Below the pieces are notes generated by a model, which was not told the origin of the DNA, did no database searches, and was given only the letters and a program-made list of their open reading frames with translations. DNA of 64,000 nucleotides from Marinicella sp. (GTDB taxonomy: Bacteria > Pseudomonadota > Gammaproteobacteria > Xanthomonadales > Marinicellaceae): positions 3,827,502 to 3,891,501 of the forward strand of contig OZ246001.1 of the NCBI GenBank assembly GCA_965230295.1, written 5' to 3'. Position 1 is the stretch's first letter, and each line of letters starts with the position of its first letter. The position numbers and the translations under genes are program-made. Of the stretch, positions 6,697 through 28,659 are shown piece by piece.

Positions 6697-6697
6697 T

Positions 6698-8939: not shown

Positions 8940-8965
8940 TTATCCACCATAAAAATTTGTGAGTA

Positions 8966-9040: not shown

Positions 9041-9531
9041 TAATAAATATGAATTATTTGGTCATAGTTATTTTCAATAACTAGCCTATGCTTATTTGTA
9101 AAACCAGCTGTTGTTTTATTGAGTTTATGCCACCTAGAAAGGCTGTCCAAACAATTTTGGATCCATACTTTGGTTTACTATCATAAACTGATAAAACATT
9201 TTGATACTTGAAAATTAATTCAAAACTCCAAGGGCCTTTATACGTGCCCTTGTGGTAAATGTTGATCAATAAGAGCAGATGTTTATGCTCGTTTTGAAAA
9301 ATAGCCCTGAGTTTTTCAGTTATTGGTTACAGTACAACTAACTCAAAGGCCAGGGCTTAATGCAAATGCGGTAGATGAACAATGCACCCTTGTGAAATCC
9401 GTTGAAATCACTAAAAATTAGTTATTCAAGGGTAATGAGTTTAGAGGTGAGTAATATTTAGGGCAAGGCATCAGCCGAGCTCAGGTACGCTGGAAAACCA
9501 GGTTTTCATCGTCTCCATCCTGATTAATCCA

Positions 9532-10170
9532 TTAGGATTTTTTAATAATTTCATTGTAAATAGTATTTATTTCTTGGCTAATTTTTGAACTTATAAATTC
9601 TTTTGAATAAACTGCATTTAAGTTATATAGAATTATTGGTGTGGTTTTTGACAATCCTAAATTCGTCAATAACTGAATAGGGCTGATCTCAAAGTTTAAT
9701 TAGCTATTCATACCATATGTATGCCGGAGCCATTGAGCAGTTGCTTTTTCACATTTTTTTAATATCTTCTTCAAAGTATTTTTCTAAGACCGTGTTTTTT
9801 ATACAGCGGCTGATTTTGCAGAATCAATTTACTTATATCATCAAAAACTATTATTATATTGGTAATTTGACGTATAGAAACTGTTTTTTGAGATACACGT
9901 TTGGCTACAAAAGAAATATTACCTGAATCTAACTCATTGGAGTTTTGCGCACATTCCCTCTAAATTCACATATTTTTTGCTAAGTGATTGATTGTGAATG
10001 TCATGTATTTGTTAATAGAACAATGGTCAAAAAATGTGATCATCATTGTTTTTTGAAGATTACAACGACACCCATTCTGACCAGTTTTAATCCTAACATT
10101 TATAATGTATCTAATCTAATGTTTACAACTTTAAGTACTGAACCAATAATCATTCAAAGTTATCGGTGGC
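9532..10170 (-). pseudogene. Decayed paralog of the degenerate tyrosine recombinase at 13082-14332
   Basis: Frameshifted minus-strand translation: LGLKL...RQITNIII.FDDISKLILQNQPLY...KYFEEDIKKCEKATAQWLRHTYG...LTNLGLSKTTPIILY...EINTIYNEII*. Compare the intact gene: FGLKI...RQISTIV...DISKIIIQNQSIY...KYFIDDIEKCQMATAQWLRNSFG...LGNYAPLSVILY...DIENIYDQII. Confidence 0.88.
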
Positions 10171-10219
10171 TATTCAATAATTGACCCAAAAAATTAATTT
10201 AATTCTTAAATACAATAAG

Positions 10220-10289
10220 GAGTGCACTTATTTACTGACAAGAGTGGAAAGGGAAAATATAAAGAGTCTAGCTTTCGATAAGTGCACAA
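10220..10289 (-). repeat. Conserved 3' hairpin element (copy 2)
   Basis: Minus strand TTGTGCACTTATCGAAAG...TTCCCTTTCC...CAGTAAATAAGTGCAC; 10-bp inverted repeat. Confidence 0.65.
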
Positions 10290-10305
10290 ACTGGTTGTTT
10301 AATGA

Positions 10306-11886: not shown

Positions 11887-12179
11887 AATATCTCTCTAGT
11901 CTTCAAGGAAATTATATTTCGTCAGTTGACTAGCTTTAAGTCTGTTGAATACAAATTTTATTTTGGATGCTTCAAAAGTGCTGTGGAATATGTTGCAATG
12001 GGTATTGACTTTGTTGTAAACGACCTCTTGGTTTAATTCTGCAATAATTTCTGAAGGCCTTTGATTATGTATTGAGGATCAATGACCCAATAAACAATGA
12101 GACCGCAATTGGCATCAATAATGTGGGTGGGTTTAGGTGCGCAGACCACTGGAGGTGATATTTTATTGGTTGATTTGAA

Positions 12180-12737
12180 TGGCTCATCACCTGGTTTACT
12201 TGTCGCGGGTAACACTGTGATTTATGAAATCATGATTAGCAACGATGGGCCGATGGATGCCACCGATGTGGACGTCAGTGATACAACCTGAATTTAGTCG
12301 CTGTGGCTGGTGACACCTCCTGTGCACCAGCCAGTTTTATATATACCATCGCTTCACTCCCCAGTGTCACCAGTGAAAAATTAACTGTCTTAACCACCAT
12401 TAATGCGGTTGGGGTCTTTGATAATGTATATTCTGTGGGCGCAGATCAACCAGACGGCAATCAGTCAAATAATATCGATGATACAGGTAATGGTGGTGAT
12501 GAAATTATCATGAACAATGGATCTTTTGCATTCATTACATTACTTGACGATGAGTAAAGCTATCAGATAACAATCGATTTGCCACCTATTGATCCGATCC
12601 AACCCTGTACAATCACAAATGACATTGAATTAATTGCTGGTGATGATGTAATTGATGTGGAAGTGGCTTGTGAACGAGGAGATGATTTGATTTTTAGAAA
12701 TGATTTTGAAATGATGCCGCCAATTATTATGAAATAA
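12180..12737 (+). pseudogene. Fragmented DUF11-domain secreted protein
   Basis: YEIMISNDGPMDATDVDVSDT and DGNQSNN fragments in different frames; final fragment QPCTITND...VACERGDDLIFRNDFE. Confidence 0.7.
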
Positions 12738-13081
12738 AGATCAAATCTTTTCTAATTTTAACTCTGAAATTGGATGCTGAAGAAACTATGAGTACAGGAG
12801 GTATTTTGGGTTTCTAAAGGTGATGATATCAATAGTTTTAGAATACCATGTCTTTATGGTTCTGTGGGTATGTTATGTTGTCATTAACAAATTCATTTTA
12901 CCTCAAATAAATATCTCATCCTCGTCACGGTGCTAAAACTGAAGGAAAGGTCAAAAGGGTTTGGGTAAATGTAAATATTGGAAAAACAAGTTATCTAAGG
13001 GTAAATAAAGAAGAATTTAAATATATATTGAATCTACTTAACATTAAGTGAGGCTTACCAAATAAAATCACATTAATTTAA

Positions 13082-14332
13082 TCAGTTTGAAAGTTTGTTG
13101 TTTTCAATAATTTGGTCATATATATTTTCAATATCCAACTTATATTTATCGGTAAATTTGCCTGCATTTTTAGCTGAATTCACGCGATATAAAATAACTG
13201 ACAATGGGGCATAGTTACCAAGAGTTTTCATTGCCTCAATTGGTCTCATCGACTTATTTTCTACCTTTGCACTCCCAAATGAGTTTCTTAACCATTGAGC
13301 AGTAGCCATTTGGCACTTTTCAATATCATCAATGAAATATTTTTTGTATGTGGTATTTTCATAAATAGATTGGTTCTGAATAATTATTTTGCTGATATCC
13401 ATTAAAGTTGATCCAACAATGGTCGAAATCTGCCTAGTTGTTATTTTCTTTAGTTTATAGGTATTTGAAACCAAAGGAATGATGACATCAGAATCAGTTT
13501 CGAAATATTCAGCCATGTAGCTTAGTTGTGAATTAATTACTTTCAACTGCTCAGAGTTCAAACTGATATAACGTTCATTTGAACCCATGATTTTAAGGAA
13601 TAATTCATTTTCTAAAGAAATTACATCTGAATTTTTCATATTGGAAAGTTCTGTTATTTTGAGCCCGAACTCTAACAAAATGTAAATGATCAAAAAAGCG
13701 CGATTGGCTTCAAAACAATCATAAGAAAAGCGATCGTAATCTGTTTCTTGTGCTAATACTGTTAATATGAACCTAGTTAGCTGGGGGTTTAAAGTTTTGC
13801 TGTTATACCGACTTTCCAATTCGCTGAGAGAATCATCTTTCATGAGATAGGCTGGTACAGGGTTCCTATATAAATAACAATTTGATTTCAAAAATCTGTA
13901 AAGAGTGTGTATTTTCCTAAGTGAGGACCTTACTGAAACCTTGGATCGAATTGATTTACGAAAGGGACGCCATTCAGGATTAATGCTATCATCGATTAAG
14001 ATTTTTTTCTGATGAGTCCCCACCCATCTCTTTAAAGGTTTTGGATTGTAAAGAAATTCAGAGTAGGCCATGCAATTATCTGTCGTGAAAGCAGTAAAAG
14101 AAATGTTATTCTGCTCTAACCACAATAAAAATGTTTCAATTTCTTTGTAATAGGCACTTATGGTGTTTTTCACAGATTCCTTCATTGAAAGAAACTTCAT
14201 AATTGCATCAATATCAGTATTCACAGACAAATCGTTTTCTAAGTCTTTGCACAGGTTTTGGCCTGGAGCAAATACATCTGGCACTCTGTGCAGAATAACT
14301 TTTGAGGATTTATATAACAGTATCGGCTCCAT
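13082..14332 (-). CDS. Tyrosine-recombinase-fold protein with degenerate catalytic motifs (candidate TnsF-like target selector)
   Basis: Core-binding domain (T..AYYKEIETFLLW, WRPF, YLYRNP); box I FGLKITEL (R to K); no GKG/K; box II QWLRNS (H to Q); LGN (H to N); Tyr retained; starts 11 nt after the tniQ stop. Confidence 0.85.
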   Translation of the reverse strand: MEPILLYKSSKVILHRVPDVFAPGQNLCKDLENDLSVNTDIDAIMKFLSMKESVKNTISAYYKEIETFLLWLEQNNISFTAFTTDNCMAYSEFLYNPKPLKRWVGTHQKKILIDDSINPEWRPFRKSIRSKVSVRSSLRKIHTLYRFLKSNCYLYRNPVPAYLMKDDSLSELESRYNSKTLNPQLTRFILTVLAQETDYDRFSYDCFEANRAFLIIYILLEFGLKITELSNMKNSDVISLENELFLKIMGSNERYISLNSEQLKVINSQLSYMAEYFETDSDVIIPLVSNTYKLKKITTRQISTIVGSTLMDISKIIIQNQSIYENTTYKKYFIDDIEKCQMATAQWLRNSFGSAKVENKSMRPIEAMKTLGNYAPLSVILYRVNSAKNAGKFTDKYKLDIENIYDQIIENNKLSN

Positions 14333-14343
14333 AATTTACACTC

Positions 14344-15705
14344 TTAGAAATATGAGTTGATTGCTTCGCCACCGAGATTAAAAATACTCAATAATTTTCT
14401 GGATTGTTTATTATCAAATTCAAAAATATCTTCAGGATAATAAACTGATAGTTTTAATTCATCTAATATGAATGTATATGGGCACCTGCATTCAAAGTTA
14501 TTTTGCAAGCCACCAACTATTTTACCATCGTCACTCTTTTTTGTTTGTTCCAAGAAAGATGACACGTACTTGAAAATACTGAGATAAGTGGTCCATAAAT
14601 CTATCTTATAAACCAACATTGATAGCTCCATAGGCATGCGATAGAACTTTAATTCTGATTTATCACAAATTACTTCATGTCTAATGAAAAACTGATGGAC
14701 TTGAGGTAGCTTAAGGCCACGACTAGTCATGTTGTTATATAAATCAGTAAAAACTGAAGCAGACCTATCTTCTGGCACATAATGACCATCATGAAGTAGC
14801 TTAATTAACTCTAGTGTGTTTGTCTTAATGTGGGCACTTGTTAAATCAGCGGTGTTGTTTTTAAGTAAGCATCTAATTTTTGATAATGATTTTTGGGTTA
14901 CTCTAACTTTTTGCTTATCTAGAGCACTCCAATAGTCATTTTCATTCACAAATCTGGACATATTGTCATCAGTTGTAACAGTATATTTTTGCTTGTTAAT
15001 TCGATAAAAAGGAACTTTTAACTCTTGAGCAAGTTGTTTCTCTGATTCAAATAAATCACCTTCCTTTGCCATTACAGATAAATTGAAAATGTGGTTATTA
15101 TTAATAACAGGCTTTGGAGTGAAAAACTGTGTATCTAAATACAGTTCAAATTTTGGCAGATACTTTTTCGAACGTCTTATGATTGAGTTTAAGAAATGGA
15201 CTTGGTCAAATTTTTCGTCACATGGTATTTTATTTGATTTGACTATTTGATTATCTAATTTTGTACCACAGGAACTACAGCCTCTTGATATTAAGTCATG
15301 AGACATAGGCCAGTGAATTCCACATACATGACAGTTTGTTATTAAATCAGCATCATGAATAGGGCACTTTAGTAACCAAGGTTCATCAAATAGTTTTGTA
15401 TGAAACCCAATCTCAGCGCATTCTGGGCAATGCTTTAGTGGTCTATATCCTTTTTGTAATAAAAGATTCAACCTTTGATCTGATGGAATGTTTGATCTTT
15501 CATACATACTAGCAAGCAATGCAGGCTTGTATGCAATCAGTTTAGAATTAATAAATAGCTCACTTCCTTTGATGCCGACGTTCTTGAATTCTTTAATGAC
15601 TTTGCAGATAGAATTTAACCTTTGATTTGCAATAAGAAACCTGCGATAAGCGGAGTAGGGGCTTTCTCCTGGTCTTTTCAGCATTTGGCCAGTATTAATC
15701 ATCAA
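14344..15705 (-). CDS. tniQ: TniQ/TnsD-family protein
   Basis: Zinc-finger motifs CPEC...CPIH...CHVC...CSSCG; ATGA overlap with tnsC. Confidence 0.85.
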   Translation of the reverse strand: MMINTGQMLKRPGESPYSAYRRFLIANQRLNSICKVIKEFKNVGIKGSELFINSKLIAYKPALLASMYERSNIPSDQRLNLLLQKGYRPLKHCPECAEIGFHTKLFDEPWLLKCPIHDADLITNCHVCGIHWPMSHDLISRGCSSCGTKLDNQIVKSNKIPCDEKFDQVHFLNSIIRRSKKYLPKFELYLDTQFFTPKPVINNNHIFNLSVMAKEGDLFESEKQLAQELKVPFYRINKQKYTVTTDDNMSRFVNENDYWSALDKQKVRVTQKSLSKIRCLLKNNTADLTSAHIKTNTLELIKLLHDGHYVPEDRSASVFTDLYNNMTSRGLKLPQVHQFFIRHEVICDKSELKFYRMPMELSMLVYKIDLWTTYLSIFKYVSSFLEQTKKSDDGKIVGGLQNNFECRCPYTFILDELKLSVYYPEDIFEFDNKQSRKLLSIFNLGGEAINSYF

Positions 15706-16664
15706 ACTAACTCAACTTCATCAGGAATCAAGCCAGAAGCATTTATACTGGCTTCTACCATCTGGCTCATTAGAATAGGGTCATTGACTCCGTTGTTGGG
15801 AATAAAATCAAACAACAATATACGAATCATGGATAGAAAGTATTGAATGGGCCATGACTCTATTCCAGCTTCTTTACGAAAGCATTCCTCATAAACTTGC
15901 CAGATGATTTCTGTAATATCAATTAATCTCCAGTCATCAGACACTTCCTGATTCCATAGGTATTCTTTGGTATACGAGTTTTTCTTTGTAAACAAATATT
16001 TTTGATCAATCTCACTTAAACATGCCTTCAGTTCTATTTCCTTTCTGATTCCATAGAAATTATGAAATTTCAATAAAAACCGTCCCCTTATCAATTCATA
16101 CTGTGGGTTTTCTTTCATCTTGTCTAATAACTGTACCGAAGCAGAATGATTCCCAACAAAGAAAATCGAAAGATGAATCCCAAAATTCATCAATCCATCA
16201 TAGAGTTCAGCAAATACTTCAAACTGTTTAGGCCTAAGTCTTTGCATTTCATCAATAAAAAGAATCAGATTATGAGGAGTTTTAGAATTAGTCGCAGACT
16301 CACCAAGAAAATAAATCAAATCATTAGCCATAATGTCTGCGCGAGTATTCTCAGTTATTGATAGTTCAGCTGAATAGCACAGCTGCCTAAGTATTCCTGT
16401 AATGGTTCCTACATCTCTTGGTGCTATAGAAGTGAAATGGCAATTAATTTTTTGATTTCTTCTTGTGTATATTCGATCTTTGACATGCTGTATTGCCGAG
16501 GTTTTTCCAATTCGGTTAGAACCAAGAATGACCCCTCCAGAGAAGCCATTCAAATGCCATTTATGGATGACCTCAGACAGTTCATCAATCATCGGAGTTG
16601 TTATAAAAAACTCCTTTAGATTCATCATCTGATCATAAATATTTGAGGAGCCATCATTACTCAT
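15702..16664 (-). CDS. tnsC: TnsC-like AAA+ ATPase
   Basis: Walker A GSNRIGKT; Walker B LFIDE; AAGGAG RBS and ATGA overlap with the tnsB stop support a start at 16664. Confidence 0.88.
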   Translation of the reverse strand: MSNDGSSNIYDQMMNLKEFFITTPMIDELSEVIHKWHLNGFSGGVILGSNRIGKTSAIQHVKDRIYTRRNQKINCHFTSIAPRDVGTITGILRQLCYSAELSITENTRADIMANDLIYFLGESATNSKTPHNLILFIDEMQRLRPKQFEVFAELYDGLMNFGIHLSIFFVGNHSASVQLLDKMKENPQYELIRGRFLLKFHNFYGIRKEIELKACLSEIDQKYLFTKKNSYTKEYLWNQEVSDDWRLIDITEIIWQVYEECFRKEAGIESWPIQYFLSMIRILLFDFIPNNGVNDPILMSQMVEASINASGLIPDEVELV

Positions 16665-18565
16665 CTTTTTTCTCCTTTGAATAAACCTCTGTTCCATTCG
16701 AAAGGGTTGTGTGATTTCCCGGTTTGAGTAAGATCTACTTCGTGATTGCTGTTGTTATTAAAATCATTTATTTCATCATCAGTTTTAAGGTGGTCAAAGG
16801 TGTTTATGCTTGAATTAAACTCTTTGGCCAGCCTCACTATTTCTAATGCTTCGCTAGGAAGGTGCTTGTCTCTCATGTGAATATCAAACATATTTCTGAG
16901 GGGATCTTTCAGTTTCAGGTTTTCCTTTCTGGTATATTTTGAGATTCTTTTTTTGGTTCTAAGCGAGAATGGGTGAGACTGCCAAGAAAGTGGAGCCATC
17001 AAAGCTCCAAGAGATGTTCCATCTTCCTTAAATGCTTCAACCACTCTCAAGTCCCTTCTGTCAAAACGGATGGTTATTTTCTGATTTTCTAATTCAGACT
17101 CGTTCAATCCTTCTCCAACATACCGAAGCCCATTAAAACTGATTTCTGGTGCTCGATTGTCACTTTTATACCAACATATTTTTCTGGTGTCTTGAGATAC
17201 AAATGGGCCTATGTTGTCTTCCCTCATTGCATAATTAATCCTTAGTGGATGACGTTCGTTTTGATATTTCAGATAATCTAATGGTGAAAGACCTCCCAAG
17301 CGCTCACGAGGCCGAGTGTTCTCAGCTGACACGACTACACTGATAACTTCTTCTAGTGTGCGCAGGGAAAAAGTAGGAACCTTCTTTGTATTAGATTTTG
17401 TTTCTTTAAGAGGATCTAAAACATGGGAGCCAGTTGTTGATGGAAAACGATGAATAATTTCATTTAATAATTTAAATGCGTACTCAATTAATTGTCTACT
17501 CTTAGGATTTGCTGGTAAACCATAATTGAGGGTTGCTCCCAATGTAATTAAAACATAATCTTTTATACTCTTAGCCCTATGGCATTTTGCATTATCAAGT
17601 CCTACAATGCCAATTGATCGAAATTGAAACTCCTCATCCAGAGCACTTGGTAAACATGCACCCAATTGATATTCTAGCCCTGGTGTTTTCAATTCCATTG
17701 GCTCCCATTTTTCGTTTAGAAAACTGAATAAATTCAATAAGTCATCTTGATTAGGTTCTTTGGTGTAGCACAAAAAGTAAGAAAGAATACAATCAGATGC
17801 AACATCTTTCATCATAAATAAAGAAAGTCGCGAGAGCTTTAATGTTTTAATTACTCCATTATCATCAATAGCTATATTTACTTTTATATCTGTTAACTGA
17901 GAATCCAGTTGTATTTTTTGAAATGGCAGGAGGTCAATAATTTGAGTCTGGTTAATTGACCGCTGTTTTTTCTTCTTTGGCATGCGGTATTTATTAACCA
18001 ATTTATGAAAATACCTTCTACAACTTTCTAATGCCTTGTTAGACTGATCGAAAGGATATTGATCATCAGGCCAGTTTAAGTCTTCCAACTCTGCTAGAAA
18101 CGCTTTATGAAAACTTTTTGGGGTCATGTTTTCTGCATTAGGATCCCTTCGCACAAACGCTTTTACTTTGTTCTTGAGTCTTTCGGTCATTTCTATGTTT
18201 TCCTCAAGAATTTTAGTAAATGAACCTCGAGCTCCTGAACATTTATGCTTACTTAAAGATTTTTTTCTTTTTCCATTATTTATTTTTTGACCTGGAATCA
18301 ATGCTTTAGTTAAAGGTTGATCGTCATCCTCATAACCTGCCAATGCTCTACTCATTAAACGGCTTATTGCTGAAACCGAGATATTTTCCTCATCAGCTAT
18401 ATCTTTAAACCTAATACCTAACAGTACTTTTATTACAATCCGTTGATTTCTTAAAAATTTTGTTCTTTTAACCCCCTTAAATTTCTTATGGTTTACTTTC
18501 GGCCAATTTTTATAATCTCTAAGTAGTGGAGAATACTGAAGCCGGAGTAACCATGTTAACCACAT
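16661..18565 (-). CDS. tnsB: TnsB-like DDE transposase
   Basis: QLDSQLTD, GLDNAKCH and LIEYAF give the D-D-E triad; Mu-transposase-like C-terminus. Confidence 0.88.
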   Translation of the reverse strand: MWLTWLLRLQYSPLLRDYKNWPKVNHKKFKGVKRTKFLRNQRIVIKVLLGIRFKDIADEENISVSAISRLMSRALAGYEDDDQPLTKALIPGQKINNGKRKKSLSKHKCSGARGSFTKILEENIEMTERLKNKVKAFVRRDPNAENMTPKSFHKAFLAELEDLNWPDDQYPFDQSNKALESCRRYFHKLVNKYRMPKKKKQRSINQTQIIDLLPFQKIQLDSQLTDIKVNIAIDDNGVIKTLKLSRLSLFMMKDVASDCILSYFLCYTKEPNQDDLLNLFSFLNEKWEPMELKTPGLEYQLGACLPSALDEEFQFRSIGIVGLDNAKCHRAKSIKDYVLITLGATLNYGLPANPKSRQLIEYAFKLLNEIIHRFPSTTGSHVLDPLKETKSNTKKVPTFSLRTLEEVISVVVSAENTRPRERLGGLSPLDYLKYQNERHPLRINYAMREDNIGPFVSQDTRKICWYKSDNRAPEISFNGLRYVGEGLNESELENQKITIRFDRRDLRVVEAFKEDGTSLGALMAPLSWQSHPFSLRTKKRISKYTRKENLKLKDPLRNMFDIHMRDKHLPSEALEIVRLAKEFNSSINTFDHLKTDDEINDFNNNSNHEVDLTQTGKSHNPFEWNRGLFKGEKR

Positions 18566-19221
18566 AATTTCACCTCAGTATCATATGAAAACGGCCTCTC
18601 TTCTAAATTCATGATAACCATCCCTTTATGACATAATCTATAGAAAGCAATCTCATGAGCTTTTTTATTAAACCTATCATGCTGAGAAATGATGTCACCC
18701 AACTGCTGCTCTGGTGTAATGCTTAAGGAATCTAATATCTTATATTCTTGGTTCTGTGTTTCAATGTGACTGTTTATAACAAGAGCTCTGATAATTTCGA
18801 GCCAGTTAACAGCAAATATTTCTCTATCCAACACTTCTTCATTTGAGATAACCAAGAATTCAATATTTTCTCTTTTTAGGTAGGCTTTTAATGGGATTTG
18901 TATTCTCTGACTAAATTTACCCTTAGGTTTGAGTTCAACAATATATTTCTTGCCATTTTTTACATAGTAACAATCAGGGATATATGGCCTGTTTCCTATT
19001 AAGAATTTGTGTGATTGAGGCACAAATCTTGTTACTTCAGGATCACTTTCTAAAATTGCCGCATGAAGAAATTCGCTCTTCGAATGAAATATTCCAACTT
19101 CTGGAAATTTAATGAATATTTGATAAAAACAATTACTGCCTTCTTCTATTTTTTTCGCGTCAGCCATATGCTGGAAAGGGGTTAATGTATCTGTTTTTAC
19201 TTTTAAATTACTAGTTTTCAT
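18556..19221 (-). CDS. tnsA: TnsA-like PD-(D/E)XK endonuclease
   Basis: SKSEF...LESDPEV...Q, YIPD and IVELKP motifs; overlaps the tnsB start. Confidence 0.85.
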   Translation of the reverse strand: MKTSNLKVKTDTLTPFQHMADAKKIEEGSNCFYQIFIKFPEVGIFHSKSEFLHAAILESDPEVTRFVPQSHKFLIGNRPYIPDCYYVKNGKKYIVELKPKGKFSQRIQIPLKAYLKRENIEFLVISNEEVLDREIFAVNWLEIIRALVINSHIETQNQEYKILDSLSITPEQQLGDIISQHDRFNKKAHEIAFYRLCHKGMVIMNLEERPFSYDTEVKLCG

Positions 19222-19259
19222 CTCTCAATAATTAGGAATAAAACATTTTTAATTTATCA

Positions 19260-19317
19260 AACAACAATATTTATTGGAAGTAACAACAATATTTTCTGTT
19301 GTTACAACATTTTATTG
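19260..19317. repeat. About 22-bp-period direct repeats (ACAACAATATTT-like) with near-palindrome TGTTGTTACAACA; candidate TnsB sites, transposon end or regulator operator
   Basis: ACAACAATATTTATTG (19261), ACAACAATATTTTCTG (19283), ACAACATTTTATTG (19304). Confidence 0.6.
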
Positions 19318-19389
19318 AAAAATTTTATAGCCAATGCTATATTGATAGTTGTAATTTTTTAAACGTATTAGTCGGAGCATGAAATCTTC

Positions 19390-19860
19390 ATGGTCGAAAA
19401 ACAAAATAATGTAAAAGGTTACAAACCTGGCCAGGTTTGTGAGCTTATAGGTGAGAGCTATGAAACCCTAAGATATTGGAGAGAATACCTATACCCCAAA
19501 CCTCCCCAAATTCATTTCAGTTTGAATGATATTTTCATTTACCATTTCATAAAATCTTTTATTAAAGGAAAGAGAGTAGATGTCAACGAACTTGAAAAAG
19601 TAGAATGGAGAAAAATTTTACAAAGATGTAGTAGCTTGAGTGCTGAAGAGAAAAAGTCTTGCATTGCTGTATTTGACTTTCAGAGCAGAAAATTTTCTTT
19701 TATAACATCTATCAATCAAATAGATTTAAGCGATGACAGGTACACTTTTGTTTACATGAAAACAATTTTTAATCGATTTAATTTATCATTGCGAAAATTT
19801 GGAAATGCTAGGTCAAATATTGTTCCTATAGAAACCGGCCTTTTTATTGAAGCCTCTTAA
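19390..19860 (+). CDS. MerR-type HTH regulator divergent from tnsA
   Basis: YKPGQVCELIGESYETLRYW resembles a MerR HTH. Confidence 0.65.
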   Translation: MVEKQNNVKGYKPGQVCELIGESYETLRYWREYLYPKPPQIHFSLNDIFIYHFIKSFIKGKRVDVNELEKVEWRKILQRCSSLSAEEKKSCIAVFDFQSRKFSFITSINQIDLSDDRYTFVYMKTIFNRFNLSLRKFGNARSNIVPIETGLFIEAS

Positions 19861-20073
19861 TATTGGTTGGGTTCGGCTAATATTATTTCTTAGTGATTTA
19901 ATCCTGCTGAACTGCCCAATTAAATTTCTACCACATTCCATATTATTTTTTTATTTAAATAATGTGCATCTATGTTTAGTGCTATCTGGTTATCTATGTA
20001 CAATATATTGAGAAAATTTTTTTTAAAGGGAAAAGAGTGCTAGACAAGCTACTCATAAAAATGAGTATTTATT

Positions 20074-20324
20074 TTGAATAAAAAATATCGTTTAACATTG
20101 ATGGTCATATCACTAATTACGATAATAACAATAGGACGTTTATCCACAGGATCATTTGACTTTTGGAGCACTCAATTCTGGTTTGTTTCTGGGGCTTTAT
20201 TACTTATATTACTAGCATTAATTGATCAACCACATTTTTCAAAAGACGCGAACATATTTGTTAACGGTTCGACTGCTCTTATTTCATTATTCGTCGTCCA
20301 ATCCAATGATAGAGATAATTTTTG
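20074..20324 (+). pseudogene. 3'-truncated membrane protein
   Basis: Hydrophobic N-terminus; the sequence switches to FG-GAP coding sequence at about 20325, so the rest of ORF 20074-20463 is off-frame readthrough. Confidence 0.65.
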
Positions 20325-21761
20325 GCCGGGGATTTTAATGGTGATGGCATCGACGACCTCATCATTGGCGCTTGCAGAGCTACCCCTGATGCTGTTAATA
20401 ATGCTGGGCGCAGCTATGTTGTTTTTGGCACACAATCTGGTTTATTTAACCCTTTGGCATTAAGCGATTTGGATGGTTCAAATGGGTTTGTCATAGATGG
20501 TCATATTCCTAATGGTTCATCAGGCAGATCGGTGGCATCCGCTGGAGATGTGAATAACGATGGCATTGATGACATTCTGATTGGTGCACCAGAAGCAACA
20601 AATCAAGTTACACAAGCAGGCATTGTTTATTTGATTTATGGCTCAGATGAAGGTTTCTCTGCACAGCTGAACTTGAACGACCTGAATGGTATCAATGGGG
20701 CGGTCATAAACGGAAACTACATTCAAAGCCGTTTTGGCCATTCAGTGAATGCCGCCGGTGATGTCAATAACGACGGCATTGATGACATCATAATCGGTGC
20801 ACCTGATGTTGATAGCAATGACGTTGTTAGATCTGGTGCTGCGTATATCATTTTTGGTCATGAGCAGGGGTTGATTCATCCTTTGGGTGTATCTGACCTG
20901 AATGGAATCAATGGTTTTGAAATTCGCGGAATAACACAAGAAAATTCAAGAATTGGATATTCAGTGGCTGAGGCTGGCGATGTCAATGCAGATGGCATCT
21001 CAGACATCATCATCGGTAGTGCCTATTTAGTAGGCCATATCGGCGATTTTAATGCCGGTCAGAGTTATGTTGTCTTTGGCAGTGATCAGCGGTTCCCAAA
21101 TCCGTTACAGTTATCTGAGTTAAGTGGAAGTAATGGGATCCAGATTTTAGGTGAACATGCAGATGATCAATCGGGATTTGCGGTGAGTGCTGCGGGAGAT
21201 ATCAACCATGATGGCATTGATGATTTTGCCATCGGTGCTGTCGGTACGGATCATAATGGGTTAGAAAATTCAGGATCTGTGTATGTGATTTATGGGGGTC
21301 ATTCAGAGCTTCCTCACCCTTTTAACCTGAGTTCAATCAATGGCGTTAATGGCTTTCGATTGGATGGAACTGATGCGAGAGCCAATTTTGGGAATGCAAT
21401 CAGTAAAGCACAAGACATTAACCTGGATGGCATGGATGACATCATTATTGGGGCTTTTACTGCACCTGTTCCCTCAGTGACTGATGCGGGCAAAGCATAT
21501 GTCATCTATGGCAGTGATCAACCCATAGGCCACCCCTTCAATCTTTCTGCTTTAAATGGGCTTAATGGATTTGCTGTTTTAGGGTCGGATAATGACAATC
21601 TGGGGAGCAGCGTGAGCGGAATGGGAGATTTCAATAACGACGGAATTAGCGATCTGATTATTGGTGCTTTTAATGCGGCTGTTGAAGATCAAAGCCGTGC
21701 AGGAAAAAGTTATCTGATATTCGGTACCGAGCAGGCCCTTTTTGCCAATGGTTTTGACTGA
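20325..21761 (+). pseudogene. 5'-truncated FG-GAP repeat protein
   Basis: Begins mid-repeat (AGDFNGDG) right after in-frame stops; no signal peptide or RBS; ends ALFANGFD. Confidence 0.8.
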
Positions 21762-21784
21762 CCCTATTAATCTATTTGCGAGCA

Positions 21785-21860
21785 TTGTGCCCGTATTGAA
21801 AGGATTACTGTGTTTCTCTCCCTCCTCTTCACAGTTAATTGACTCGATACGGGCACATTT
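21785..21860 (+). repeat. Conserved 3' hairpin element (copy 3)
   Basis: Perfect 11-bp inverted repeat TGTGCCCGTAT/ATACGGGCACA; inner stem ACTGTG/CACAGT; loop contains CCCTCCTC. Confidence 0.8.
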
Positions 21861-22185
21861 TTATGATGTCTAATCACAGTGCCAAGACACATGTTATAAA
21901 CGATTAAAATATTAAATACCGATGAGCCACAACGAGATAAACGGTTGCTTCCATGCTCCAACATCATCAAAGTCGAAAACTTGCAAATAAAGACTGAGTT
22001 AATTGAGCTGCCCTGACATTACAATTAACTGGTTTGAATCATCCAAGCTCCAAAACAAGCAGTCAAAAGGCGTCCCCCAGTGAGGTCTTTTTGTATTTGC
22101 ATTCAATCAGGTAACAAGTATGTAACAAAATTAATACCCATTGCATCAAGCTTGATAACCGTTTTCCTTGCTTCTGCCTAAACTC

Positions 22186-22216
22186 AAGCCCATCCATCAA
22201 AGTGATGGGCTTTTTT
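22186..22216 (+). terminator. Intrinsic-terminator-like hairpin directly upstream of an RBS
   Basis: AAGCCCATC-loop-GATGGGCTT followed by a T run; AGGAGGAG follows 6 nt later. Confidence 0.6.
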
Positions 22217-22234
22217 ACAAACAGGAGGAGACAA

Positions 22235-23842
22235 ATGAAACCTCAAAAACAACTTTACTGGGCGTTGCTTACGTCTGTATTTTTTAACAACACATCACAC
22301 GCTGGCTTTGATGCCGAATTGAGCTTGAGCGAAATTGAGGGCCTGAACGGCATCGTTGTTCAAGGAGAAAACCCCCATGATATTGCTGGGTTTTCGGTCA
22401 GTCATGCGGGTGACCTCAATGGCGATGAAATTGATGATTTCGTTATTGGTGCTTATGGCGTAGATGAAGGGATTGCCCAGAATGCGGGTCGCAGCTATGT
22501 GGTGTTTGGTTCTGCCTCAGGTTTACCCAGCCCATTGAATCTCTCTACTTTGGATGGCAATAATGGTTTTACCATTCACAGTTCAGCCACCAATGGGGGC
22601 TTTGGTCATTCAGTCAGTCATGCTGGTGATGTGAATCACGATGGATTGGATGATTTAATCATAGGCGCACCTTACTCCAATGTGACCACAATATTCCAAA
22701 CTGGGGCGGCGTACGTGATTTTTGGCCAAGACGAAGGCTTTGACAATGTCATAAATGTTGAAGATTTGAATGGCGATAACGGCTTTGCTATTTTTGGTAA
22801 TCAACAACAGAGTACTTTAGGTTTTTCAGTTTCATCGGCAGGTGACATCAATGATGATGGCATTGATGATGTCATTATCAGTGCACCAAAGACCGATAAC
22901 AATGGTGTCAATGATTCAGGTGCCGCATATGTGATTTTTGGAGATGACTCTGGATTTCCTCACTCTCTTTCCATCTCTGCTTTAAACGGTCTGAACGGAT
23001 TTGAAATTCGTGGTTTTCCATTTCAGTTTAATGGCCCTGAATTAAAAGTAAGTTCGGCAGGAGATGTCAATCACGATAACATCAATGACGTTGTTATTGG
23101 AGGCCCCAGAGTTGGGATAGATGGGCAGGAAGAAGCTGGTGTCGCTGTGGTGGTCTATGGACAATCAACACGCTTTCCTAATCCTGTGCAGATGTCAGAG
23201 ATAGATGGTGATAATGGCGTGCATATTTATGGCATTGCTGCATTTGATCAAACCGGTTACAGCGTCAGTGAAGCCGGTGATGTCAATGCCGATGGCATAG
23301 ATGACCTGATCATTGGGGCCAGAAGAACTGATTTTAATGTCACCAATACTGGATCGGCATACGTGGTTTATGGTCAATCATCAGGGCTTGCGCATCCTCT
23401 GGATTTAAACGACATCAATGGACTCAACGGCTTTCGCATAGATGGAAACTTATTAGGTGCTGAATTAGGCACTTCTGTCCATTCAGCCGGTGATATCAAT
23501 CATGATGGTATAAACGATCTGGTTGTGGGCGCACCAGACGATTTAGTACCAGATACAAATGCAGCAGGTAAAAGTTATGTGATATATGGCTCTGATCAGG
23601 GCATTGGACATCCCATTAATGTGGCGGCTTTGGATGGCAACAATGGCTTTGCCATCGCAGGTTCGGATGACAATGGGAAATCAGGGCAGGCTGTCAGCCA
23701 GGCTGGTGATGTGAACAACGATGGCATCAGCGACTTCATCATAAGTGCCCATTTAGCTGGTGCCAATGGCATAAATGCAGCAGGAAAAACTTATGTGGTT
23801 TATGGCCGTGAAAAGCCTTTGTTTAAAGGTGGTTTTGAATGA
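22235..23842 (+). CDS. Secreted FG-GAP repeat protein (7 repeats)
   Basis: AGGAGGAG RBS, ATG at 22235, signal peptide, FG-GAP repeats; ends PLFKGGFE. Confidence 0.92.
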   Translation: MKPQKQLYWALLTSVFFNNTSHAGFDAELSLSEIEGLNGIVVQGENPHDIAGFSVSHAGDLNGDEIDDFVIGAYGVDEGIAQNAGRSYVVFGSASGLPSPLNLSTLDGNNGFTIHSSATNGGFGHSVSHAGDVNHDGLDDLIIGAPYSNVTTIFQTGAAYVIFGQDEGFDNVINVEDLNGDNGFAIFGNQQQSTLGFSVSSAGDINDDGIDDVIISAPKTDNNGVNDSGAAYVIFGDDSGFPHSLSISALNGLNGFEIRGFPFQFNGPELKVSSAGDVNHDNINDVVIGGPRVGIDGQEEAGVAVVVYGQSTRFPNPVQMSEIDGDNGVHIYGIAAFDQTGYSVSEAGDVNADGIDDLIIGARRTDFNVTNTGSAYVVYGQSSGLAHPLDLNDINGLNGFRIDGNLLGAELGTSVHSAGDINHDGINDLVVGAPDDLVPDTNAAGKSYVIYGSDQGIGHPINVAALDGNNGFAIAGSDDNGKSGQAVSQAGDVNNDGISDFIISAHLAGANGINAAGKTYVVYGREKPLFKGGFE

Positions 23843-23860
23843 TGGTCAAACTTTGAGTCC

Positions 23861-23929
23861 AGTGTTTGTTTTGAACGACTTGCTTTTTCCCACCTCATTT
23901 AGCAAGTTCAGTAGGAATAGGCACATTTT
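23861..23929 (+). repeat. Conserved 3' hairpin element (copy 4)
   Basis: GTGTTTGTTTTGAACGACTTGCT...CCCACCTC...AGCAAGTTCA...GGCACATTTT. Confidence 0.6.
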
Positions 23930-23971
23930 TTAAATCTTTTCTTTTAAAATCAATGCAGATTCAGGGATAAC

Positions 23972-24328
23972 ATGATGAATTCAAAAAATATTAACTATGC
24001 GTTCAGCTTGATGTTGCTGCTGTTGGCTTTCAAGTCACTGGCTGAATCAACCACCATCGAAATTCCTGCCGAATTTCACCCAAACAATGAAGCGCTCATC
24101 TCTGTGGTCAATGTGAATGTGCCCTTAAACGCTACGACAGCCCAGCCTGTCCCTGCTTGTATTATTGTTCATGGCTCTGGCGGGTTGTTTTCTGAAGGTG
24201 AAGTTGGCGAAGCATGTGATACTTCTCCCCATAATATGAGTGGCAATTTCGCTGATTTAATGGCTGTTTTCGAAGAATTAGGCGTGGCAACGATTGCCCC
24301 ATCCAAAGAAAAAAATAGGCTGAATTAA
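23972..24328 (+). pseudogene. 3'-truncated secreted alpha/beta-hydrolase (dienelactone-hydrolase-like)
   Basis: Signal peptide and PACIIVHGSGG motif; runs into AT-rich sequence at about 24305 before any nucleophile motif. Confidence 0.55.
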
Positions 24329-24537
24329 TTTTAGATATCTCTTATGGATAGAAATGCATTTTGATTTACTCTCAATTATTAAATCAGGATTAAATCAGGA
24401 TTTAATAATTTAAATTCTTCATTTGAATGGAATAATACAGCCATAAATAAGTATTTTGGGTTTGAGTAAAAAAGAAATAAGCTGTATAGTTAAACTTGAG
24501 ATCAAGTCTTAACGACAACAATAAACTGAATAATCAA

Positions 24538-25038
24538 ATGAACATGTTAAAAATAATTGTGACAATTACAACTCTTGTTTTATCATCAATAAGTAAGGGA
24601 GATTCCAAAGAAAGTTGTGAAGATTTATATTCAAAAAGTCTTGAAACAGACTTATACCTAACTTACGAATTATTTGATCAAACTCCAGCAAATGGATTTC
24701 GAAAACTTGCGGGTCAATGTCCAGGCGAAGCTGTTAAATTAATAAAAAACTATATTATCATTAACGAAGCAAAAGAAAGCTCCTTGAGATGGCATATTGC
24801 TCAACTGGAAGGAATGATGGGCAATTATCAGGAGGCTATTATCTTTGCAAATACTGTTCTTACTGAACAAAATACTGGACAGTTTAAATGGAATGATTTT
24901 GTTGAGGGTAAAATTGCATATTGGAAACAAGATTTCGAAACCTTAAAAGATAAGATTAAGATTCTTGAAAGTAATTTGGATCATCGGGGGAACAAGATGA
25001 ATGTTGAAATTCTGAAAGGGCATCTTGCTGAAGAGTAA
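24538..25038 (+). CDS. Hypothetical exported helical protein
   Basis: Signal-like N-terminus; no recognised family. Confidence 0.6.
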   Translation: MNMLKIIVTITTLVLSSISKGDSKESCEDLYSKSLETDLYLTYELFDQTPANGFRKLAGQCPGEAVKLIKNYIIINEAKESSLRWHIAQLEGMMGNYQEAIIFANTVLTEQNTGQFKWNDFVEGKIAYWKQDFETLKDKIKILESNLDHRGNKMNVEILKGHLAEE

Positions 25039-25113
25039 ATCAATCTAAATATATAGATTTCGTAATGAAAGTAATCTTTGCATCAATAAAATTCAATATA
25101 ACTGATTGAGTCT

Positions 25114-27645
25114 ATGCACAAAGCTTTCAATGCTCTTTTAGTGCTTTTGTCTCTGTACTTATTATCTGGTGAAACAAAGTCACAGATTCTTGCTGAGTAT
25201 TTAAATAACTTTTCGAAAAACATAATACTTCAGTGTGATTCTGAAAAAAACAAGAATATAGTTCAGGAAAATTCTAACGTTGTTGGTGAATATGTCTTTC
25301 AAGAGTTTAGTTCACCATCACCATATCTTGGCAAAGAAAGCATGGATGTCTCTCATGAACTTGTTTGGACTGAGACAATTCACTCATCTGATGCCTCATA
25401 CATTTCACCTTACTTTAGTCAATACGATATTAAGCCAGAAGACTTCTTTGTTTTAAGATCACCAGATCACACAAGATCTTGGACATATGATTTTGAAGAG
25501 TTAGCTAGTTTTAATGGCAAGGGTTTTTGGGGCATACCAATTCATGGTGATACTGCAATCGTTGAATTATATGCAGGTACAAAACAAGGTTCTGGCGGTA
25601 TAACTATTGGTAAGTTTGCAAAAGGCTTTCCTAAAGATATAGAAAAAACCCAATTCAGATCAATTTGTGGCACAGATGACAGTGAAGAAGCCGTATGTTA
25701 TCAATCAACAGAGCCAACTGTCTATGAAAAATCTCTTGCCGTTGTAAGGCTCAATATTGGTGGTGTCATAGCATGTACAGGTTGGCTCGTAGGCAATGAA
25801 GGACATGTCATTACAAATGAACATTGTATAAGCGTTCAAGCAGCTGCAGAAGTTACTTCAATTGAGTTTTTAGCTGAGGGAGCTGAGTGTTCAGATGACT
25901 GTACATATCCATTTGGCTGTCCAGGAATCATTGAAGCAGCTTCATCACAAGTAGTAAAAATGAATGCTGATTTAGATTATGTTTTGCTCAAACCCAATAA
26001 CCCAATTAACGACCTTCCCTCGACCTATGGCTATTTACAAATGAGGGAAACCGGTGCAGAAATAAATGAACAAATATATATTCCACAACACCCTCGAGCT
26101 TGGGGCAAAAGGATTGCTTATTTTTCAACTGATACAGCTTCAGGCTTAGGAGAAGTTCACAGTTTGAACATGCCACCATGCTCCTTGGTAGGAAGCGATG
26201 TTGGATATCTATTAGATACACAAGGTGGTTCTTCAGGGTCTCCGGTGATTTCATACGACGACCATAAAGTAGTCGCTCTTCATCATTGTGGAATATGCCC
26301 AAATCGAGGGGTTCCTATAGAAAGTATCATTGATGACTTGGGAGACGATTTACCCAATTCTGCTCTATGCGACTCACCAGAACCACCATTAAATCTAGCG
26401 GCTCAACAAAAGAATGACAATGAAATTCAGCTGACTTGGAGTCATGGTGTTGGTGCAGATTCTTACGACATATACAGATCAGTTGGTATGTGTACACATC
26501 AATCTTTGGATTATCAACTTATTGCTTCAAAAGTGGTTGGAACCTCATTTATTGATACAACTGTCTCAGGAAATACCACATATTCTTATAAATTGAAATC
26601 ACACAATCAAACTGTTCAATGTGATTCTTTATTCACTGAATGCTCATATGCAACAGCAACAGGGTTATGTACCATGGCCCCAACTTTTGATGGTTTGGAA
26701 ACGATATCCTCATCACAATCACCAATTTGTAAAACCTCTTTACAGTGGTCACAAGCGGATCAAAATTGTGGAACTAACATCAGTTACAACATTTACAGGG
26801 ATACTGTTGATGATTTCCAACCATCAGTGCAAAATTTAATTTCTGCTTGTGTGGATGGTTTATCATTTAATGACTTTGACCTTCAAAGTGATGCTACATA
26901 TTATTATTCAGTACAAGCAGAAGACAACAGTGGTAATGGATCAGGGTTGTGTGGTTTTGGTAATGAAAACACGAGCCTCACCCAATCAGGTATTAGACCA
27001 ATGGGCCCTAATTCGGTTGTATTTTTTGATGAAGTTCCATCAAGCCAACCCAACGATGCATGGATCGCTGTTAATGGTTCAGGGGATGATGGATCTACCC
27101 ATAATTGGTCAATCACTGATTCCCGCTCATTTTCTCCACCTTATTCTTGGTTCATTCAAGAATATTCAGGTAACAAAGAAAAGTTGTTAATTTACAATAA
27201 TTCGCTAAGTGTAAACAATGAGTTTTATATGCTTGAGTTTAACCAGTTTATGGGGCTTGAAAGACTTAAAAGTGGAGCTGTTTTAGAATACTCAACAGAC
27301 AATGGGGCTACTTGGTATGACATACTTAGAGGGAATGGAGTAACTGTGCCCGACAATTCAAGTCGTATTGAACAAACAGGTTATAATGAAAATCCTTTAA
27401 TTGGTGATGGTGTATTAGCTGGTAGATTAGCATGGACTGGTAACACTTACGACGGCTGGCAAAATGTAAAAGTCTCCTTAGCTGATTTTGATGGAACTGA
27501 CATCAAACTCAGATGGCGATATGGTTCTGATTCGAGTGGCAATAACTATGGGTGGTATGTAGATGATGTCAAAATTTACTCTACATCTTCATGTATAAAC
27601 ATAGCAGATGACTTAATTTTCATTAACGGATTTGGAGAAGTTTAA
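25114..27645 (+). CDS. Secreted trypsin-like serine protease with FN3-like domains
   Basis: Catalytic triad motifs TNEHC, DYVLL and GGSSGSP; PLNL...LTW...SYDIYR FN3 repeats; ends DLIFINGFGEV. Confidence 0.88.
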   Translation: MHKAFNALLVLLSLYLLSGETKSQILAEYLNNFSKNIILQCDSEKNKNIVQENSNVVGEYVFQEFSSPSPYLGKESMDVSHELVWTETIHSSDASYISPYFSQYDIKPEDFFVLRSPDHTRSWTYDFEELASFNGKGFWGIPIHGDTAIVELYAGTKQGSGGITIGKFAKGFPKDIEKTQFRSICGTDDSEEAVCYQSTEPTVYEKSLAVVRLNIGGVIACTGWLVGNEGHVITNEHCISVQAAAEVTSIEFLAEGAECSDDCTYPFGCPGIIEAASSQVVKMNADLDYVLLKPNNPINDLPSTYGYLQMRETGAEINEQIYIPQHPRAWGKRIAYFSTDTASGLGEVHSLNMPPCSLVGSDVGYLLDTQGGSSGSPVISYDDHKVVALHHCGICPNRGVPIESIIDDLGDDLPNSALCDSPEPPLNLAAQQKNDNEIQLTWSHGVGADSYDIYRSVGMCTHQSLDYQLIASKVVGTSFIDTTVSGNTTYSYKLKSHNQTVQCDSLFTECSYATATGLCTMAPTFDGLETISSSQSPICKTSLQWSQADQNCGTNISYNIYRDTVDDFQPSVQNLISACVDGLSFNDFDLQSDATYYYSVQAEDNSGNGSGLCGFGNENTSLTQSGIRPMGPNSVVFFDEVPSSQPNDAWIAVNGSGDDGSTHNWSITDSRSFSPPYSWFIQEYSGNKEKLLIYNNSLSVNNEFYMLEFNQFMGLERLKSGAVLEYSTDNGATWYDILRGNGVTVPDNSSRIEQTGYNENPLIGDGVLAGRLAWTGNTYDGWQNVKVSLADFDGTDIKLRWRYGSDSSGNNYGWYVDDVKIYSTSSCINIADDLIFINGFGEV

Positions 27646-27815
27646 TAAAAGTTGGCGGTTTACGTAGCTATGTGGTCACTGGGCCCTTATGGAGGTTTGA
27701 TACCCAAATTAGCCCGAATTTAGTCAATCACCCAAGAGTTGACTCAGAAAAACAAATTATCTCAATAGCTTACGTGGGTTTCATGTCCATTTTTGGTTAA
27801 ATCTGGCACATCACC

Positions 27816-28412
27816 CTAAATTTGAATTCGAGGTTCCCAACGATGTGATTTATAGTGTCTGTAGCTTTCAAGAAGAGTAAAGTTGTTATTTTCTTTACTT
27901 AATAAGTTTAATGCTTTTAGATATTCATTTTGATTTGAGAAATTGAAGCCAAAGTTTTGAGGTGATTATAATCTTTTGACGACTTCTAAATATGTTAATA
28001 CTTCTTGTTTATTATTTGGATTGAATGAATGAAAATTTGACCATACAAGTAAGCTGATTTTTTCTCTCATTAAATAAAGATTCAAAATACAAGCATCAGC
28101 ATAAAAACTTACTGGTCCATATGTTTGTGAATGTGCTTGACCATCAGTAGTAACTTCTTTATATGCCAACGAGTGTGACTTCATTTTTGTGAAGCCATAA
28201 ACAAGTTGATCTGCCAAATGTTTAATGTCATTTGCCCAATGGAATGTATTGAACTTCCAATGACTGTTTTGATTTTTATAAAATTTAGTTCTTAAAATAT
28301 TAAATTCAATATCTAGCTGATTAATTTCTACATGCTTACACACATCATCAGTAAGAGAGTGATAAATGTTATCCGCATTGTCAAACACGTCTTTATTCGT
28401 TAAGTTTGTCAT
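27816..28412 (-). pseudogene. HEPN-domain (R-x4-H) protein interrupted by a premature stop
   Basis: ORF 27966-28412 continues in frame past TAA to ...ESYRHYKSHRWEPRIQI*; RHYKSH at 27860-27843. Confidence 0.6.
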
Positions 28413-28528
28413 GAAACTACCAAGTTCATAGAAACTATAGATTTTACAATTAAATTATGCTCATGTATTAAAGTTAAAAAAAATCAAATTTGCGTACATT
28501 TCATAATTTAATTTAACTGGTGTTTTAG

Positions 28529-28601
28529 TTTAGTGGGTTAGTTGTAACTTTAGTGGGTTAGTTGTGAAAAGTTTAGTGGTTTAGTTGTGCCTCCAAAAAC
28601 A
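28529..28601 (-). mobile_element. Tn7-like transposon end facing into the island
   Basis: Minus strand TGTTTT-TGGAGGC-ACAACTAAACCACTAAA-N6-ACAACTAACCCACTAAA-N3-ACAACTAACCCACTAAA: three 17-bp repeats at 20-23 bp period; terminal TG at 28595 or TGT at 28601. Confidence 0.75.
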
Positions 28602-28631
28602 TGGAATAGGTTTGTTAAATGATTAATTAAA

Positions 28632-28659
28632 TATACGCATAATATATATTATGTTAAAT
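28632..28659 (+). other. dif: dif site (XerC/XerD chromosome dimer resolution)
   Basis: TATACGCATAA-TATATA-TTATGTTAAAT versus E. coli GGTGCGCATAA-TGTATA-TTATGTTAAAT; XerD arm identical; genes on both sides mostly point toward it. Confidence 0.92.

Follow-up and report, generated by a model that had tools for sequence, protein, structure and literature searches.

Known Tn7-like attachment sites include the ends of essential genes, tRNA or SRP RNA genes, comM, and CRISPR-guided protospacers. In Tn7 itself, TnsD directs the transposon to a fixed distance at glmS, with the right end proximal. Tn5053/Tn402, the "res hunters," are TniQ-dependent transposons that aim at a multimer-resolution site and need the cognate recombinase bound there. 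The dif site is also bound by a recombinase pair; it is short and noncoding, occurs once per circular chromosome, and is conserved across phyla.

In Tn6022, a tyrosine-recombinase-fold protein that has lost its catalytic residues, TnsF, directs the element into comM, inside its own binding site (PMC10293859, PMC11014353), and an element-borne XerC-like protein of Tn6022 islands acts at an internal dif-like site (PMC11014353). The IS1202 family (ISAjo2 type) has a TnsB-related DDE transposase, generates a 5-bp duplication, and inserts specifically beside dif and pdif; contact with bound XerC has been proposed (PMC10132070). A first-pass annotation of the DNA studied here had held that known dif-integrating elements, IMEXs such as CTXphi, use host XerCD recombination and not DDE transposition. 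DDE transposition aimed at dif does have some precedent in the IS1202 family, which achieves it with a TnsB-like transposase alone (PMC10132070). The same annotation knew of no described Tn7-like dif pathway, and here we agree: full-text literature searches and the main surveys of Tn7-like target selection (dif or Xer terms) yielded no Tn7-like element with dif as its attachment site. Closest in kind are the IS1202 family, TnsF at comM, the Tn5053 res hunters, and the XerC-like protein of Tn6022 islands.

We analyzed a stretch of 64,000 nucleotides from a Marinicella genome (G000:C1:3827502-3891501; hereafter, the window) in which three short repeats stand beside dif. These repeats very probably form the right end of a Tn7-like cut-and-paste transposon whose lineage uses dif as its attachment site; we infer dif targeting from positions alone. 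The features around this junction are listed below in window coordinates.

1..28595, minus strand: part of element E1 inside the window; E1 spans genome positions 3782384-3856096 (73,713 bp), with its left end about 45 kb before the window start
28529..28595, minus strand: right (tnsA-side) end of the Tn7-like element, with three 17-bp TnsB-type sites at spacings of 23 and 20 bp
28596..28600, no strand: right copy of the 5-bp target-site duplication AAAAC; the left copy is at genome positions 3782379-83, outside the window
28601..28631, no strand: 31-bp spacer from the duplication to dif, variable in sequence between genomes and not conserved
28632..28659, plus strand: chromosomal dif, TATACGCATAATATATATTATGTTAAAT, with the XerC arm at 28632-42, the central region at 28643-48, and the XerD arm at 28649-59

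The 17-bp repeat, ACAACTAA[C/A]CCACTAAA, occurs exactly three times in the window, always on the minus strand (28529-45, 28549-65, and 28572-88). Comparison with related ends gave the terminus motif 5'-TGG-N5-CAACTAA, and both this motif and the [20, 23] site spacing of the E1 right end recur in those ends. The right terminus is position 28595, from which the inward read is 5'-TGGAGGCACAAC, i.e., 5'-TGGAGGC-ACAACTAAACCACTAAAC (TGGAGGC-ACAAC); it lies 36 bp from dif. The first-pass annotation had left the end at either 28595 or 28601. The family terminus and the AAAAC duplication select the former, and we rejected an end at 28601 (TGTTTTTGG...) because it would break the duplications both in Marinicella sediminis and in the genome under study.

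The position proposed earlier for dif, starting at 28632, is well founded. No other dif-like site is present in the 4.008-Mb genome; cumulative GC skew over the whole genome has its maximum at 3,857,365, 1.2 kb away; and the 28-mer is single copy and conserved in most genomes of the same genus, as well as in others of the order. For these reasons, we regard TATACGCATAATATATATTATGTTAAAT as the real dif. It agrees with the Escherichia coli dif in 24 of its 28 positions, and the XerD arms of the two are identical. The composition of the island also stops at this boundary, as had been noted, with G+C passing from 0.30-0.40 to 0.42-0.50. Genome-wide, the terminus motif has only 11 matches; by chance, one of them would fall 35 to 38 bp from dif, correctly oriented, with a probability of about 1e-5.

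The left end of E1 consists of the 17-mer in inverted orientation at genome positions 3782391, 3782456, and 3782516 (3782391-3782532). The sites of this end are 65 and 60 bp apart and those of the right end 23 and 20 bp apart; such wide-left, tight-right spacing is the asymmetry of Tn7-family ends. The left terminus, at genome position 3782384, is preceded by AAAAC at 3782379-83. The first-pass reading of the three repeats as a Tn7-like transposon end is thus matched by an inverted end 73.7 kb away and by AAAAC on both sides. The left terminus of E1 reads TAAAGAT, compared with TGAAGGT in the metagenome relative L020 and TGGAGGC at the right end; the terminal TG has changed to TA. Given TA in place of the conserved terminal TG, this copy of E1 may be immobile.

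On the XerC side of dif, a head-to-tail stack of at least three Tn7-like elements of this family extends from genome position 3697695 to 3856096 (about 158 kb, 4% of the genome). The left end of E1 abuts the right end of an older element, X; about 85 bp of X show homology with an orphan right end located 35 bp from dif in an uncultured Marinicella. More junctions lie at genome positions 3734462/3734469, and another left end lies at 3697695. The middle stacked element carries a tnsABCQ operon that is 40% identical (genome positions 3743697-3747569) and has no recombinase; the ends of the element with the paralogous operon were located with the terminus motif, after a repeat search around the operon had given none. 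Any insertion at one site makes the same 5-mer again, so the agreement of the two AAAAC copies is no proof that E1 moved as one piece. Within the window, a second, fragmentary copy of the operon recombinase gene is followed, about 200 bp downstream, by a lone left-end-like site, ACAACTAACTCAAAGG, at 9335, a possible left-end remnant. The pseudogene and the lone site suggest that E1 may have arisen from two fused elements, the junction between them having been lost.

The transposition operon of E1, on the minus strand, encodes a TnsA-like protein, a TnsB-like protein, an AAA+ TnsC, a TniQ of 453 amino acids (aa), and a tyrosine recombinase of 416 aa. The assignments in the following list are predictions from sequence comparison, given with the evidence for each.

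9541..9917, minus strand: pseudogene fragment, second copy of the degenerate recombinase (tblastn)
13082..14332, minus strand: 416-aa Xer-like tyrosine recombinase, catalytically degenerate; top NCBIfam family XerD (E 1.4e-9); begins 11 nt past the end of tniQ
14344..15705, minus strand: long TniQ, 453 aa, candidate dif selector; N-terminal zinc-finger region conserved, C-terminal half very divergent
15702..16697, minus strand: TnsC/TniB-like AAA+ ATPase, 331 aa; AAA_22 at 37.3 bits (cut-off 27)
16661..18565, minus strand: TnsB-like DDE transposase, 634 aa; Mu-transpos_C at 22.1 bits (Pfam cut-off 21.7), weak PDB matches to retroviral-integrase cores
18556..19221, minus strand: TnsA-like endonuclease, 221 aa; PD...ExK motif, gene order, Pfam TnsA-like_N below cut-off (E 0.005)
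19390..19860, plus strand: MerR-like regulator, divergent from tnsA; weak Pfam MerR_1 match, homologues upstream of tnsA in L020, M. sediminis, and Wenzhouxiangella limi
27966..28412, minus strand: orf148, first gene inside the right end; a 66%-identical copy holds the same position in the neighboring element of L020

The TnsB family comprises 1143 clusters at 50% identity. Homologues of the TnsA-like protein match TnsA-like_N at E values of 3e-5 to 5e-4 (3e-5 for the W. limi homologue), and the support for the TnsA assignment is weak but consistent. For TniQ, the profile gave a TniQ as its top PDB match (E 0.018) and aligned three further TniQ entries to the same zinc-finger region, while Pfam TniQ gave no match; the W. 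limi homologue is labeled TniQ in UniRef. The operon recombinase matches archaeal XerC-like and XerA structures in the PDB, and its only matches in NCBIfam and Pfam are to Xer and phage-integrase families. Four of its six catalytic residues are lost (R to K, K to N, HxxR to QWLR, and LGH to LGN). The substitutions are identical in all three homologues, at 52 to 86% identity, with the reading frame intact. No family matches were found for orf148, which has a 32%-identical paralogue elsewhere in the genome, at 2505025-2505321.

Metagenome contig L020 carries tns genes 86 to 89% identical to those of E1, with the same three spaced 17-mer sites directly after the recombinase gene. The recurrence of these sites beside a homologous operon ties the TnsB of E1 to them. 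Upstream of tnsA, the cargo of L020 includes an MmeI-type restriction system and a helicase; restriction and other defense-type genes are found in related elements as well. As predicted from these sequences, the family layout is right end, orf148, cargo, MerR-like gene, tnsABCQ (with the recombinase in some), and left end. Cargo placed between the right end and tnsA explains why 9.4 kb separate the two in E1.

Between tnsA and the divergent MerR-like gene, at 19240-19330, there are AT-rich direct repeats (AACAACAATATTT, two copies) and a palindrome (TGTTGTTACAACA). We considered and rejected this cluster as the true right end. It contains no TGG-N5-CAACTAA terminus, site motif, or other end feature of the family; relatives do not keep the region as an end; and the cargo of L020 runs on past it. 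The repeats and palindrome are probably the operator or promoter of the MerR-like gene.

To see how far the arrangement at dif extends, we scanned one genome per species with the pattern TTAGTTG-N(3-12)-CCA-N(38-46)-CATAATNTANATTATG, which allows terminus-to-dif distances of 32 to 40 bp. As the dif core CATAATNTANATTATG is palindromic, ends on both sides of dif are caught. The same end type was found near dif in 21 further species from about ten gammaproteobacterial groups, a count without a denominator since the pattern finds only ends near dif. They include Marinicella (four records and a fifth contig), Arenicella and Arenicellales, Alcanivorax (two), Kangiella, Methylophagaceae, Ketobacteraceae, Oleiphilaceae, Cocleimonas, Lysobacterales, and Poriferihabitaceae, among others. 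The gap from site to terminus is 5 bp in 19 of the 21 species. The terminus lies 35 to 38 bp from dif in all 21 and 35 or 36 bp away in 18; with the E1 genome included (n = 22), the distance is 35 bp in nine, 36 bp in ten, 37 bp in two, and 38 bp in one. Spacers and insertion-point 5-mers are unrelated from genome to genome.

The right end, which is the tightly spaced and tnsA-side end, is always proximal to dif. Elements occupy the XerC side in 9 species and the XerD side in 12 (10 and 12 with the E1 genome), at mean distances of 36.1 and 35.5 bp, respectively. Right ends with the site sequence of E1 (AGTGGGTTAGTTGT) are found on the XerD side in another genome (L070), so the side is not a lineage trait. 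The constancy of the offset across species, together with the chance of about 1e-5 in the E1 genome, leads us to conclude that the family homes to dif. This agrees with the first-pass proposal that the family is directed to dif, to which the 5-bp duplications also speak. Of the regularity it had asked for, the constant offset and the proximal tnsA-side end were found, but a fixed side was not, both the XerC and the XerD sides being used.

A TnsB profile search at the order level detected homologues in 19 of 401 genomes. In six genomes of this sample, TnsB and dif were found on one contig, each time within less than 100 kb of each other, and end-type repeat arrays flank dif in 9 of the 10 TnsB-bearing genomes in which dif was located, a small sample. 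More distant TnsB relatives in the same sample lie 32 to 57 bp from dif, distances for which exact termini are not defined. For distant TnsB relatives carried by plasmids of Bacillus and Paraburkholderia, a simple pattern gave no clear Xer site.

The element ends could be fixed from tandem junctions. In M. sediminis (G023, contig C12), one right-end sequence occurs twice, the first copy being followed by CAAAC and the left end TGGGCGTCCAACTAAAC and the second by CAAAC, 30 bp, and dif (overall, R-CAAAC-L ... R-CAAAC-dif). Such an arrangement marks a second insertion into those 5 bp, and these junctions fix the termini as 5'-TGGRCGTSCAACTAA. The first-pass annotation had suggested defining the duplication from an empty-site relative. 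The 5-mers AAAAC, CAAAC, and AGGGG were found at junctions, but no precise empty site was found among genomes of the same genus, whose flanks are only 68 to 75% identical and in which the region is rearranged; the duplication was thus defined from the tandem junctions.

Other relatives show further states of the element. W. limi (G085) has a 25.7-kb element with tnsABCQ whose tight end is about 32 bp from dif, and Marinicella genomes without tns genes have orphan right ends 35 to 36 bp from dif. Metagenome relative L097 has two near-identical left ends in the same orientation (15257-15409 and 18657-18807), 3.4 kb apart, which suggests a stacked remnant or a mini-element. A complete 16.3-kb relative in M. 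sediminis (G023:C34:35945-52356; L055/L056), with TGGG termini and AGGGG on both sides, is inserted upstream of a GntR-like gene, away from dif; its TniQ has 252 aa and lacks the C-terminal half. The non-dif site of this close relative is a counterpoint to homing.

Could the element have come to lie beside dif without any machinery that aims at it? Terminus regions are known to gather horizontally acquired DNA, so E1 might sit there by accident or because the region tolerates islands, and the relative inserted elsewhere in M. sediminis would fit such a view. However, an accident would have to account for a terminus 35 to 38 bp from dif in 22 genomes with differing spacers and on both sides, for the low chance expectation in the E1 genome, and for stacks built by repeated insertion at the same 5 bp; we consider it very improbable. 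Slightly more improbable still is that the island is an IMEX-type element integrated at dif by XerC/XerD, like CTXphi, TLCphi, or the gonococcal island. Its location and the several Xer-like recombinase genes in the stacked elements would be expected of an IMEX, yet only one dif-like site is present in the genome, the left boundary has none, dif is intact and stands 36 bp off without forming the junction, and the element has Tn7-type multisite ends, a 5-bp duplication, and a TnsABC-TniQ operon. Directly repeated boxes in an array beside dif, at the skew switch, might also suggest that a host terminus protein (a fork-trap protein or an organizer like MatP, for instance) binds there and that they are no transposon end. 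Against this, the 17-mer recurs in inverted orientation 73.7 kb away, where the spacing is wider and the 5-bp duplication matches; it recurs beside a homologous tns operon in an unrelated metagenome contig; and relatives have the same architecture with other box sequences. We give this last explanation hardly any weight.

How, then, might a Tn7-like element homing to dif find its target? The insertion point is about 47 bp from the dyad of dif on either side, and the equal mean distance from both sides makes the dyad the reference point. A reader of one arm would give distances about 17 bp apart on the two sides; thus, we infer a reader with twofold symmetry. Such a reader could be dif occupied by XerC/XerD or a dimer bound to the shared inner core, CATAA-N6-TTATG. 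In the mechanism that we propose, a selector would mark dif in a twofold symmetric way, TnsC would assemble beside the marked site on either side, and TnsA and TnsB would insert the element at a fixed distance with the right end proximal, much as happens with TnsD and Tn7 at glmS. The sequences themselves show that new copies land between dif and the resident element and that stacks build up in this way.

The universal candidate for the adaptor is TniQ, which is long (429 to 473 aa) in all dif-associated operons examined. That the sole relative found off dif has a TniQ of 252 aa is a hint that the C-terminal half is needed for dif homing. The C-terminal halves of elements with the same target and spacing are at most 20% identical and barely alignable. 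Such low identity would be unexpected for a domain that reads an invariant sequence, and the divergence argues somewhat for protein docking over sequence reading. We put the docking of the long TniQ on XerC/XerD-bound dif at a little under an even chance. Direct reading of the palindromic core CATAA-N6-TTATG by a TniQ dimer is a more tentative possibility, and it seems rather unlikely that the contact with dif is supplied by an element-encoded Xer-like protein, such as the degenerate recombinase.

The last of these can be stated more specifically for the sublineage of E1, in which the degenerate recombinase, and not TniQ, would read dif. The recombinase would attach to one arm of dif, perhaps paired with the XerC or XerD of the host, and would present the site to TniQ and TnsC, a role that TnsF plays at comM in Tn6022. 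The TnsF precedent (PMC10293859) favors this idea, as do the place of the gene immediately after tniQ, its best family match to XerD, and the replacement of the same catalytic residues in homologues that retain an intact frame, which fits a retained binding role. There is, moreover, an enrichment of Xer-like genes, of about 40-fold, immediately inside the right ends of relatives. Yet element B of M. sediminis, element E2 of the genome studied here, and the W. limi element have no such protein and nevertheless lie at dif with the same spacing, and the recombinase family has only three members in the 5.8 billion clusters searched. We therefore think this role doubtful even within the sublineage. 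Relatives that do not have the degenerate recombinase keep the same distance in homing to dif, so it cannot serve as the general selector. From its distribution in these sequences, it is best regarded as an accessory of this sublineage, which may sharpen the recognition of dif or give a second pathway.

Xer-like genes are nevertheless a recurrent companion of these elements. They are located 0.15 to 5 kb inside the right ends of relatives (L057:9463-10503, L072, L077, L082, L090, and L062) and also occur near right ends in W. limi, in Marinicella genome G008, and in elements E2 and E3 of the genome studied here, whose own Xer-like genes are at 3779246-3780193, 3776396-3777634, and 3732656-3733309. 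Apparently active Xer-like genes number five in 63 kb of element-side DNA versus one in 88 kb outside. A catalytically intact paralogue of the dead operon recombinase, isl_413 (413 aa), has copies with 86% identity in M. sediminis and in a Lysobacterales metagenome-assembled genome. A broader reading, which we put forward as a conjecture with less than even prospects, is that these elements are "dif hunters" that would recognize the XerC/XerD-dif nucleoprotein complex, and not a DNA sequence, through the variable C-terminal half of a long TniQ, through element-borne Xer-like proteins, or through both, the dead recombinase being a domesticated example. If so, the pseudo-twofold symmetry of the complex would explain insertion at equal distances on either side.

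With dif, Tn7-like elements would have a new kind of attachment site, and homing from both sides would add a target class with twofold symmetric recognition. It would also explain large stacked islands at replication termini such as the one described here; how such stacks are compatible with dimer resolution and with FtsK-directed DNA translocation is a question that follows. A natural insertion system for a site already present in most bacteria is a possible tool. Were the dif-hunter reading true, these elements would be a chromosomal counterpart of the Tn5053 res hunters with a near-universal safe harbor in bacteria with circular chromosomes, where more than 150 kb of cargo could pile up at the terminus with dimer resolution not disabled. 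Dif homing by such elements ties together dead recombinases of the TnsF type, the res hunters, and the dif-hunting IS1202 family.

Compared with these systems, the E1 family resembles Tn7 (TnsABC plus TnsD, attTn7 downstream of glmS) in most of its parts. Both have a heteromeric TnsA/TnsB transposase (predicted in E1), an AAA+ TnsC, and a selector of the TniQ family, for which E1 has a candidate; asymmetric ends with several TnsB sites each and a 5-bp duplication; and insertion at a fixed distance from the recognized sequence, right end proximal, with the target left intact. In contrast to Tn7, the target of the E1 family is a 28-bp noncoding recombination site and not a gene end, insertion occurs on either side of it at equal distance, the E1 proteins are too divergent for the Pfam TnsA and TniQ cut-offs, and the cargo of E1 is between the right end and tnsA. 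Copies of the E1 family also stack often, whereas classical Tn7 target immunity would oppose stacking.

Tn6022 and the AbaR islands with TnsF share with E1 the order tnsA-tnsB-tnsC-tniQ followed by a catalytically dead tyrosine recombinase, a likeness of predicted fold and gene order. However, E1 is at dif, 36 bp off, and not in comM, and its recombinase is dispensable for dif homing in relatives. Like the E1 family with its candidate TniQ, Tn5053/Tn402 is aimed at a multimer-resolution site, but it is without TnsA, transposes replicatively with TniR, and uses plasmid or transposon res sites bound by serine resolvases instead of the XerCD-bound chromosomal dif. The IS1202 family differs in being a 1.5-kb, single-protein insertion sequence that lies 5 bp from the XerC arm in one orientation and is without TnsA, TnsC, and TniQ; E1 measures 74 kb, has five transposition genes, and ends 36 bp from dif, and among its relatives either side of dif is used. 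IMEX elements (CTXphi and TLCphi) likewise reside at dif and exploit the site of the Xer system, but their integration is Xer catalyzed, leaves dif-like junctions, and involves neither a DDE transposase nor a target duplication. Against this background, the working parts of E1 are those already known from Tn7-like elements, and what appears to be new is the homing of such an element to a new, symmetric, and near-universal target.
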